From a virus: 64,000 bases of DNA. This document shows positions 12,765-24,883 of the stretch, piece after piece. A model generated the notes under the pieces. It had not been told where the DNA came from and ran no database searches. It saw nothing but the letters and a program-made list of their open reading frames with translations. The translations under genes and the position numbers were made by a program. Each line of letters begins with the position of its first letter. The stretch's first letter is position 1. The DNA is taken from the IMG/VR virus record IMGVR_UViG_3300028558_000001, positions 112,661 through 176,660 of that record, one strand, 5' to 3'.

Positions 12765-13365
12765 TATTAAAGCCCTTTCTCTCCTAGCTCAGTTTTACAA
12801 TACAAGTCTAGAGCAGTTAACACGTCTATATAGGATGAATATGGACCAATCTTATTTCCCCACGTTTCATCCCAAAAGTAGAAATCTTCTCCATCCTGCA
12901 AAACAACTTTATCTAAAAAGTCTTGCTCGTAATGTCGCATCCAAAGCTTATTGGTAATATTTGACACCATACATACTCCTGAGCACGTCAATTGTAATAT
13001 CCTGCTTGTAGTACGAATCTACGAACATTTTGATTTCATCATCTAGGAAATCATAATGGTCATAGTTGGTCAGACCTTCCGTAAAATCTTCAAAGTCCTC
13101 TTCGCTCAGCATTTCCCTCATTATGTCTTTGTAAGTGTCCTGATAGCTTCTTCTGCCATTACGGAAATGGTCTAGATAAATTAATACGCACATTCTAATT
13201 CCAACTCCTTATTTCACCAAAATAACTGCGAATCAATCGCTTAGTTATTTGATATGCCACATTATGGACTAATTCAAGCAACCTGCGCCATCGAAATTAC
13301 ACAATTATCCACAGTGTCTTTTATGTCACTGTAAAATGGTTTAATACCAATTTGTGGAGGATTGC

Positions 13366-13813: not shown

Positions 13814-14301
13814 CCTTTGCGGTTAAATCGAATTACTTCGATTTCATTAATTCCCTCTGATTCTTGGGGATATTCATAACTATACCGCATCCGCTTCTGA
13901 ACGTCAAGTGGAATATTTTTTCCGGGGCGGGAATTTAAGTTGATTTCTAAATCTTCGCCAGAGATTTCAAAAACAACTGCCTTAATATAGTGAGTATTCC
14001 GTAACTTGTCAATTGTCTTTTTTCTAGACTTTGGGGAAAGATTCGTCCGATCTACAACAACGTTAACGCGCAAATCTACGGCGTAGTCGATACAGCTATT
14101 GAAATGACCTTCTGCGTCCTTAATGAAATCTTTAAACACGTCAGAATACGTTAGGCCATTCCGAAGGGCGATATAGTCAATATAATCATCAGAGGAAGCC
14201 TGAACATAAAAATCAGGGAGGGAAGCCCTATATGTTGACTTTCCAGAACCCGGCATTCCAATCAATAATAAAGCTACTGGTTTAACAGTTAAATCTGCCA
14301 C
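13810..14301 (-). CDS. P-loop kinase (AAA_33 / polynucleotide-kinase-like)
   Basis: GMPGSGKST, SSDD, VVDRTN. Confidence 0.8.
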   Translation of the reverse strand: MADLTVKPVALLLIGMPGSGKSTYRASLPDFYVQASSDDYIDYIALRNGLTYSDVFKDFIKDAEGHFNSCIDYAVDLRVNVVVDRTNLSPKSRKKTIDKLRNTHYIKAVVFEISGEDLEINLNSRPGKNIPLDVQKRMRYSYEYPQESEGINEIEVIRFNRKG

Positions 14302-18214: not shown

Positions 18215-18290
18215 TGGCGGCGGCGAGGGGGATCGAACCCCTGACCAAGAATTTTAGAGATTCCTGCTCTACCATCTGAGCTACGCCGCC
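18215..18290 (-). tRNA. Amber suppressor tRNA (anticodon CTA)
   Basis: 76-nt cloverleaf; GGCGGCG/CGCCGCC acceptor; loop CT-CTA-AA; GGTTCGATCC; G73; encoded CCA. Confidence 0.9.
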
Positions 18291-22208: not shown

Positions 22209-22277
22209 TTGAAAAACTCCTTGTTAAAGGGAGTTGACTGTTCCTCTTACCATCGAGTCACAGACAATCCTGTTAAA

Positions 22278-22417
22278 TGGTCAAGTGTGATAGGGATCGA
22301 ACCTATATTTCCTCTAGTTAAACGTTGTCATATATTCCGGTTTCAAACAACGATGTTACTAACCATTGGAACTCCCGTTCTTTCGGCGGGGGTGTTTTCC
22401 ATTTCACCACACACTTA
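22278..22417 (-). ncRNA. 140-nt tRNA-like RNA with expanded anticodon region
   Basis: 8-bp acceptor TAAGTGTG/CACACTTG plus ACCA; D-arm; canonical T-arm; about 80 nt of hairpins in place of the anticodon arm. Confidence 0.7.
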
Positions 22418-22422
22418 TTTGT

Positions 22423-22493
22423 ATCGGCATCCTATCAATTAGACGACTCGGGGGATTGTCCCCCAAGACTGGATTTGAACCAGTATCTCCGAT
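22423..22493 (-). ncRNA. Circularly permuted tRNA mimic (YrlA Y-RNA-like topology)
   Basis: Order: ATCGG - T-arm - closed 9-bp acceptor hairpin - D-arm - CCGAT. Confidence 0.7.
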
Positions 22494-22523
22494 TCTTTTG
22501 ATACCAAGTTTCCTTGGTATAAA

Positions 22524-22599
22524 TGGTGGACCTGACAGGAATCGAACCCGCGACCTAGTGCTTGCAAAGCACCCGCTCTCCCTACTGAGCTACAAGCCC
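22524..22599 (-). tRNA. tRNA-Ala(TGC)
   Basis: G3.U70, loop TT-TGC-AA, CCA. Confidence 0.92.
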
Positions 22600-24806: not shown

Positions 24807-24883
24807 TGGCACATCATGTTGGATTCGCACCAACGTCTGCTTCCTGAGAGGGAAACTGTACTTGACTGCTATACGAATGATGT
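24807..24883 (-). tRNA. tRNA-Glu(CTC)-like, copy 2, with 8-nt anticodon loop and TGCG T-loop
   Basis: Paralogous body; GTTTC-CCTCTCAG-GAAGC; CCA. Confidence 0.6.

Follow-up and report, generated by a model that had tools for sequence, protein, structure and literature searches.

Stable RNAs that are not tRNAs have been known from the tRNA cluster of phage T4 since the 1970s. In T4 the 119-nt rnaD and then the 139-nt rnaC lie directly after tRNA-Arg, and rnaC carries at its end a T arm (CCGGG-UUCGAAU-CCCGG) stacked on the closing stem. Within T4 rnaC (L004, 2906-3002) we also noted a possible 8-bp pairing between the internal sequence ACGGAACG and CGUUUCGU at the 3' end, which would offer a closing stem other than the one made with the annotated 5' end. 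Blastn relatives of T4 rnaC and rnaD were confined to enterobacterial T4-like phages. The T4 species 1 (rnaC) and species 2 (rnaD) RNAs are reported to be products of the tRNA precursor transcript (PMC2330249), and the roles of rnaC and rnaD are still listed as unknown (PMC3014915; PMC12685909). A second group of tRNA mimics, the YrlA-type Y RNAs, consists of non-decoding, Ro60-bound RNAs that imitate a T arm and a D arm and occur in some phages, and one YrlA-type member is cleaved by RNase P and has CCA added (PMC4201824).

The locus described here lies in a 64,000-nt stretch (the window; positions 112,661 to 176,660) of IMG/VR record IMGVR_UViG_3300028558_000001, a complete virus genome of 176,660 bp with direct terminal repeats. 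The phage encodes a gp44-type clamp loader whose best cultured relatives, at less than 50% identity, are cyanophage-like T4-type phages, and from this affinity we consider it a divergent T4-like phage. ARAGORN called 24 tRNAs in the whole genome, 19 of them in the window, where all lie on the minus strand, from 18.2 to 29.1 kb. Every amino acid other than Asp, Phe and Tyr has a tRNA in this phage, and 23 of the 24 tRNAs have an encoded CCA end. The phage genome yielded no CCA-adding enzyme, so any CCA repair would fall to the host. Among the array genes is a tRNA with a two-base 'anticodon' (ct) in the ARAGORN output (24807-24883), adjoining tRNA-Glu(CUC); this odd gene is conserved, with two copies in the relative (L144, reverse complement, 13180-13256 and 14110-14186).

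We observed a 140-nt element (22278-22417, minus) that has the shape of a tRNA-Leu; it shares the strand of the tRNAs and lies between tRNA-Ala and the gene that follows. The order on the minus strand, 5' to 3', is tRNA-Ala, a neighbouring RNA of 100 nt (22421-22520) and then the element, whose overlapping open reading frames had no PHROG or other protein-family match. When the element region was compared with cultured phages by blastn, the sole match was the neighbouring tRNA-Ala. The layout recalls T4, where two non-tRNA RNAs in tandem, the second of about 140 nt, likewise close a tRNA sub-cluster and share its strand; the earlier statement that the T4 tRNA cluster holds stable non-tRNA RNAs was borne out, rnaD and rnaC being arranged in the same way as the neighbour and the element.

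The ends of the element form a closing, acceptor-like stem from the 5' strand UAAGUGUG (22410-22417) and the 3' strand CACACUUG (22282-22289), with 8 pairs in the minus-strand fold, namely a U.G pair first and then 7 bp. In tRNA-Leu numbering U22417 is position -1 and the following AAGUGUG, within 22410-22417, is positions 1-7, so that the acceptor stem reads AAGUGUG/CACACUU and is followed by U8, G9 and the 3-bp stem of a leucine-type D arm, GUG-AAAUGGAAAA-CAC, with G18 and G19 (22391-22409). The minimum free energy (MFE) fold pairs this D arm as GGUG-AAAUGGAAAA-CACC, one U after the closing stem. A hairpin at the anticodon position (22374-22390) has a CCCG/CGGG stem and the 9-nt loop CCGAAAGAA in the fold, and holds an internal C-GAAA-G that could form a tetraloop. 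At the variable-arm position is a 63-nt long arm (22309-22371) with three predicted helices: from the base outward, UUCC/GGAA, an AA/GA internal loop, UGGUUAG/UUAACUA, a UAACAU bulge, and a distal CGUUGUU/(G)ACAACG helix capped by a 16-nt apical loop. U48 (22307) precedes the T arm AUAGG-UUCGAUC-CCUAU (22290-22306), and the RNA ends in ACCA (22278-22281), which an 8-bp stem would make a discriminator A followed by CCA. Read in the 7-bp tRNA-Leu frame, the tail is G73-ACCA, one base longer than N73-CCA and out of register; pairing of U(-1) with the tail G gives the 8-bp stem, a discriminator A and a normal CCA. Since 23 of the 24 tRNAs of the genome encode CCA, the 8-bp reading is favoured.

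The first-pass annotation had described a 140-nt tRNA-like unit with an 8-bp stem, a D arm, a perfect T arm and an ACCA end, and the minus-strand sequence and the MFE fold agree on all of these. The CCCG/CGGG and TGGTTA..CGTTGT/ACAACG..TAACTA helices that it placed between the D and T arms are likewise all present in the MFE fold. Its view that a large insert replaces the anticodon arm needs correction, because the anticodon position holds the CCCG/CGGG hairpin and it is the variable-arm position that carries the 63-nt arm. On the opposite strand, a hairpin followed by a U run (22371-22393, plus) was considered as a terminator and rejected, as such structures occur at chance level in the region; this hairpin is the reverse complement of the anticodon-position hairpin and D arm.

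The MFE structure was identical to the centroid and contained every helix named beforehand. The fold energy of the whole 140-nt RNA was unremarkable (z -1.26; 25 of 200 shuffles were equal or better) and that of the long arm alone was marginal (z -1.68; 9 of 200 shuffles as good), and the modelled interior fold is only weakly supported. We scanned both strands of the whole 176,660-bp genome (353 kb) for five paired bases enclosing T[TG]CRANN, and found just four such motifs outside the ARAGORN tRNAs. Of the four, one belongs to the element and one to its upstream neighbour, and both have the orientation of the tRNAs and lie inside the array. From this rarity and placement we conclude that the element is real and not a chance resemblance.

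The boundaries of the element were examined against the nearest fetched relative (L005), an 18.8-kb IMG/VR fragment with an RlpA-like protein 70% identical to that of our phage; a closer RlpA-like protein, P0002, has 84% identity. The array of the relative comprises 20 tRNAs, is rearranged, and shows neither an extra T arm nor the 140-nt element. In the relative, the slot before the leader of the RlpA-like gene, where the element sits in the window, is taken by tRNA-Asp(GUC). The upstream-neighbour RNA is kept in L005 and is followed by a small open reading frame and this tRNA-Asp. Homology ends exactly at 22417/22418 and at 22278/22277: the relative's homolog of the upstream RNA aligns to the last bases before 22417, and the RlpA-like gene's leader shows 82% identity in an alignment that begins just past 22278. 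These breakpoints coincide with the predicted ends, which supports a discrete gene, and the 140-nt unit acts like a cassette that can be exchanged for a tRNA gene. By alignment with L005, the element is not conserved at the evolutionary distance of this relative. The element had been proposed to form a tandem unit with the upstream RNA, a permuted mimic; the two directly adjoin in the window, but the pairing is not conserved, the small reading frame and tRNA-Asp standing in its place in the relative.

Both flanking segments are of interest in themselves. The upstream neighbour (22418-22526, minus) has its homolog at 3525-3640 of L005, after tRNA-Glu(UUC), and the two differ by compensatory-looking hairpin changes, so that this RNA, unlike the 140-nt element, is conserved. 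The 5' leader of the RlpA-like (DPBB) gene (22209-22277, minus) is 82% identical to 3927-3997 of L005 even with a different gene upstream. It begins directly behind the CCA of that gene and includes an invariant block, GATGGTAAGAGGAA; either a structured leader or a processing signal may lie here.

The tRNA resemblance of the element is specifically to leucine tRNA. A covariance model built from the single 140-nt sequence (R1) aligns with class II tRNAs, and the 5' third is nearest to the phage's own tRNA-Leu(UAG) and tRNA-Leu(CAA); the identical D arm was observed in an ordinary tRNA-Leu(UAA) of another phage contig (L073, 4946-5029). Features common to the element and tRNA-Leu include the 7-bp acceptor, U8 and G9, the 3-bp D stem with an AAAUGG..A loop, U48, the T arm and the five-helix topology. 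It differs in having no anticodon loop, in its 63-nt variable arm (the phage's own tRNA-Leu and tRNA-Ser genes are 83-92 nt in total), and in its extra 3'-tail base or eighth acceptor pair. A class model (R2) was then built from 48 IMG/VR elements with the candidate left out. R2 matched the candidate over 22279-22416 with 50.4 bits (E about 1e-11), as against 57-64 bits for the true tRNA-Leu genes of the window, the relative and T4 and 33 bits or less for every other tRNA from these three sources. The candidate thus ranked directly under four true tRNA-Leu genes and 17 bits over any other tRNA, in a model whose members had been retrieved with a pattern taken from the candidate's own D arm. We take these scores to mean that the frame is specifically leucine-tRNA-like and fits a phage class.

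The body of a decoding tRNA is present, with the acceptor stem, the D arm with G18 and G19, the T arm with its UUCRANY loop and the NCCA end. The part that would read a codon is not: we found no 5-bp anticodon stem with a 7-nt loop bearing U33 and a purine at 37. The best arrangements at the anticodon position are 4 bp with a 9-nt loop, or 4 bp plus a C.A mismatch (31-39) with the loop CGAAAGA, which puts a G at position 33. As judged from these arrangements, the hairpin cannot decode. The Rfam tRNA model (RF00005, Rfam 15; gathering threshold 29 bits) gave no match, even at E values up to 10 on 471 nt, and default ARAGORN did not call the element in either the window or the whole genome.

We searched IMG/VR with a pattern consisting of U8-G9, the leucine-type D arm, a gap of 62-92 nt and a T loop, and observed at least 119 loci, compared with about one expected by chance, a figure estimated from the information content of the pattern and an assumed collection size. 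Several features to which the pattern was blind were strongly non-random. Pairing in the acceptor stem was complete (7/7) in 93 of the 125 matches listed, where 0.1% would be expected, and the T stem was fully paired in 119 of the 125. The 89 unique sequences among the matches listed had 71 different acceptor stems; U48 was found in 85 of them, A73 in 64, U at -1 in 60, and an encoded CCA in only 24. ARAGORN rejected 88 of these 89 sequences as tRNAs, and the generic tRNA model of Rfam, which has no dedicated family for them, gave some members 30-44 bits and missed others. About 45% of the class members listed had an ordinary tRNA of the same orientation no more than 300 nt away. The middles of the class members are unrelated and do not align with one another. 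Judged by these features, the candidate belongs to a large phage class that combines the same leucine-tRNA frame with unrelated middles, and shares with it the frame, the size range (104-141 nt) and the frequent siting in tRNA arrays. Its gap between D and T arms is 90 nt, compared with about 35 nt in the phage's tRNA-Leu, and U48 is present. Its middle is a singleton, and its G-A-C-C-A register, which fits only with an 8-bp stem, was found in no other member listed, none of which had N-ACCA after a 7-bp stem. A literature search found no published definition or catalogue entry for a class with a tRNA-Leu frame and variable middle, and one class member taken as a blastn query (L036) had no match in cultured phages.

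Several sub-groups were visible among the matches. An AGUCAGG/CCUGACU acceptor, or one a single change from it, with the tail ACAA recurs with unrelated middles on different contigs (L031, L036, L076, L077, L079, L087, L097, L098). Two sub-groups have a normal anticodon stem and variable arm with a 25-45-nt hairpin inside the anticodon loop (L037 6617-6733, L051 11712-11827, L054 4159-4272 and L093 5454-5572; L072, L078, L082 and L100). These have GC-rich acceptor stems and encoded ACCA ends, and may be a different phenomenon, e.g. small intervening sequences. A further sub-group (L028, L063, L068, L071, L042, L122, L140) has an anticodon-like arm with the loop CUGUCUC or CUGUCUA, which places GUC at the anticodon with a pyrimidine at 37, together with G73 and an extra hairpin after the arm.

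Searches for the insert itself, the putative cargo, were negative. Exact and degenerate D-arm patterns, a D-arm-plus-T-loop pattern and two cargo-loop DNA patterns gave only chance matches in coding DNA in IMG/VR, and insert patterns gave only chance matches in GTDB genomes. R1, run over relatives fetched via gp44, a 280-aa open reading frame and the RlpA-like gene, returned frame-level matches only. The phage's own genome contained no copy of the insert and no complementary target above chance, and the insert is single-copy. One class member (L096/L118/L125) was considered as a cargo homolog for its similar arm base (AG-UUCS-AR-UGG) but rejected, as 289 of 2000 shuffles reached the alignment score. 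With no cargo homolog in IMG/VR, the fetched relatives or GTDB, there is no covariation support for the cargo fold. The covariance-model search suggested by the first-pass annotation succeeded for the frame (50.4 bits with R2), and for the insert gave no relative in the collections searched.

The models also allowed the known systems to be compared. T4 rnaC scored 21 bits with R1 and 16.5 bits with R2, against 50.4 for the candidate, and in both cases through the T arm only; pairwise alignment of the candidate with rnaC gave no convincing blocks outside the T loop, and rnaC lacks the leucine-type D arm. With a shared layout and no homology, we regard T4 as an analogue and not as a family assignment. 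A Y RNA was rejected for several reasons. The ends of YrlA form the Ro60-binding stem with the tRNA-like part internal, whereas the ends of the candidate form an acceptor stem; the element had no Rfam match; and the partner gene, Ro60/TROVE (PF05731), was absent from the complete phage genome in a search that matched the control genomes, so that a Y-RNA-type role would have no partner here. The candidate resembles tRNA-Sec and the allo-tRNAs with long acceptors (PMC5389517) in its long extra arm and in possibly combining an 8-bp acceptor with a 5-bp T stem (13 bp). The tRNA-Sec assignment was rejected, as the candidate has no UCA loop or other anticodon, has a leucine-type D stem of 3-4 bp in contrast to the 6-bp/4-nt form, and has an arm of 63 nt. 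For tmRNA, ARAGORN -m found none; the sole Rfam tmRNA_permuted match (22399-22551) had 13.8 bits against a gathering threshold of 47, starts in the T arm and CCA end of tRNA-Ala and reaches only the first 19 nt of the candidate. A group I intron was also dismissed, and the earlier remark that the insert is too short for one holds, with 63-83 nt and no Rfam intron match. No Rfam match to a small ribozyme was found in the element.

In engineered tRNA scaffolds, a foreign RNA replaces the anticodon stem. The tRNA body has such an RNA processed and protected in bacteria (PMC3753655), a likeness to what is proposed below, although that scaffold is man-made and the candidate is natural with its extra arm at the variable position. 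On balance we somewhat favour a comparable reading of the element: a discrete gene for a non-decoding RNA derived from leucine tRNA, whose tRNA-processed scaffold carries a cargo. It has kept the parts of the tRNA upper body, i.e. the acceptor stem, U8, the leucine-type D arm with G18 and G19, U48, the T arm and a CCA-type end. We infer that the element would be transcribed together with the minus-strand tRNA array and excised by RNase P at the 5' end and by the tRNA 3'-end machinery at the other. The tRNA-like core would give stability, and the hairpin and long arm would be the working part, presumably one that binds or titrates a factor of the host or the phage. The existence of a large class with a common leucine frame and unrelated middles fits a scaffold that displays another domain. 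The idea of a scaffold with a displayed domain, already put forward in the first-pass annotation, gains from the non-decoding tRNA shape within the array, from the position directly behind another non-tRNA RNA as in T4 and from the frame shared by the class, and is weakened by an insert that has no relative in the collections searched and a weakly supported fold. The lack of the element in the nearest relative and a 3' end atypical of the class also count against the scaffold reading.

Next in order is the reading of the element as a decayed or insertion-bearing paralog of tRNA-Leu, i.e. a functionless pseudogene that is perhaps still transcribed and processed through its position in the array. 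We consider this unlikely, if deserving of serious weight. In its favour, no intact anticodon loop survives, the orphan cargo has weak thermodynamic support, the nearest relative lacks the element, and in the tRNA-Leu frame the 3' tail falls out of register. Decay strong enough to erase an anticodon would not, however, be expected to leave the frame intact, and here the frame helices are perfectly paired and U8, G18 and G19, U48, the T loop and CCA are all retained. The extra sequence, moreover, makes up one end-to-end arm, and this arm sits precisely where a variable arm belongs. The same frame persists, with covarying acceptor stems, in dozens of independent phage lineages, which shows selection on the architecture of the class.

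A narrower proposal is that the element is a chargeable leucine-tRNA shell, serving as an off-ribosome leucine donor, as a sponge for LeuRS or EF-Tu, or as a decoy for defence nucleases that attack tRNAs. This is a special case of the scaffold explanation and, in our estimation, an improbable one. LeuRS of the host would ignore the anticodon in any case; in E. coli the leucine identity elements are A73, A15-U48, G18 and G19, A20a and D/T-loop contacts, and tRNA-Leu variants stripped of the anticodon arm and variable arm remain substrates of LeuRS (PMC9976931). The candidate has A15, U48, G18 and G19, an A-rich 20 region and an intact T loop, and U48 (85/89) and A73 (64/89) are frequent among the class matches listed. 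The class retains exactly this E. coli identity set, and charging by LeuRS would account for the repeated use of a leucine frame rather than another. Its discriminator is A only in the 8-bp reading, whereas in the tRNA-Leu frame it is G, which in E. coli tRNA-Ser is a LeuRS antideterminant (PMC9976931). Also against charging, only 24 of the 89 class members listed encode CCA, and the identity positions are equally needed for plain folding of a tRNA core. The extension of this proposal to the wider class, as aminoacylated non-decoding 'leucyl-RNA shells' whose frame is kept because LeuRS ignores the anticodon, strikes us as similarly doubtful. If true, it would imply off-ribosome feeding or blocking of aminoacyl-tRNA-dependent enzymes, titration of LeuRS or EF-Tu, or decoys for defence systems that detect or cleave the acceptor ends of tRNAs, with the variable arm addressing each shell to a different partner. 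The kept set of LeuRS identity elements could also offer a fresh approach to the long-standing question of the T4 RNAs.

The weakest alternative, which we regard as very improbable, is an intron-containing suppressor, a tRNA-Stop(UUA) with a 63-nt intervening sequence after position 32 that would be spliced to a 77-nt ochre suppressor; ARAGORN -i called it on a 600-nt excerpt with the loop CUUUAAC, and the phage also has an amber suppressor tRNA(CUA) (18215-18290), but the proposed anticodon stem pairs at just 3 of 5 positions with two C.A mismatches, the insertion point 32/33 is no intron site known to us, 63 nt is far below the size of a group I intron, Rfam shows no intron or ribozyme, and ARAGORN with introns drops the call on the whole genome. 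The same 3/5 pairing and the loss of the call argue against the possibility, raised earlier, that the insert is spliced out to leave an ordinary tRNA.

With this element, a distant T4-like phage has an analogue of the T4 RNAs that is unrelated to them and is built on a leucine-tRNA frame. At least about a hundred uncultured phage contigs share that frame, their stems covarying and their middles unrelated, and annotation pipelines miss such RNAs or would label them broken tRNAs. If expressed, the class would represent a general modular route by which phages produce small RNAs through the host tRNA-processing machinery.
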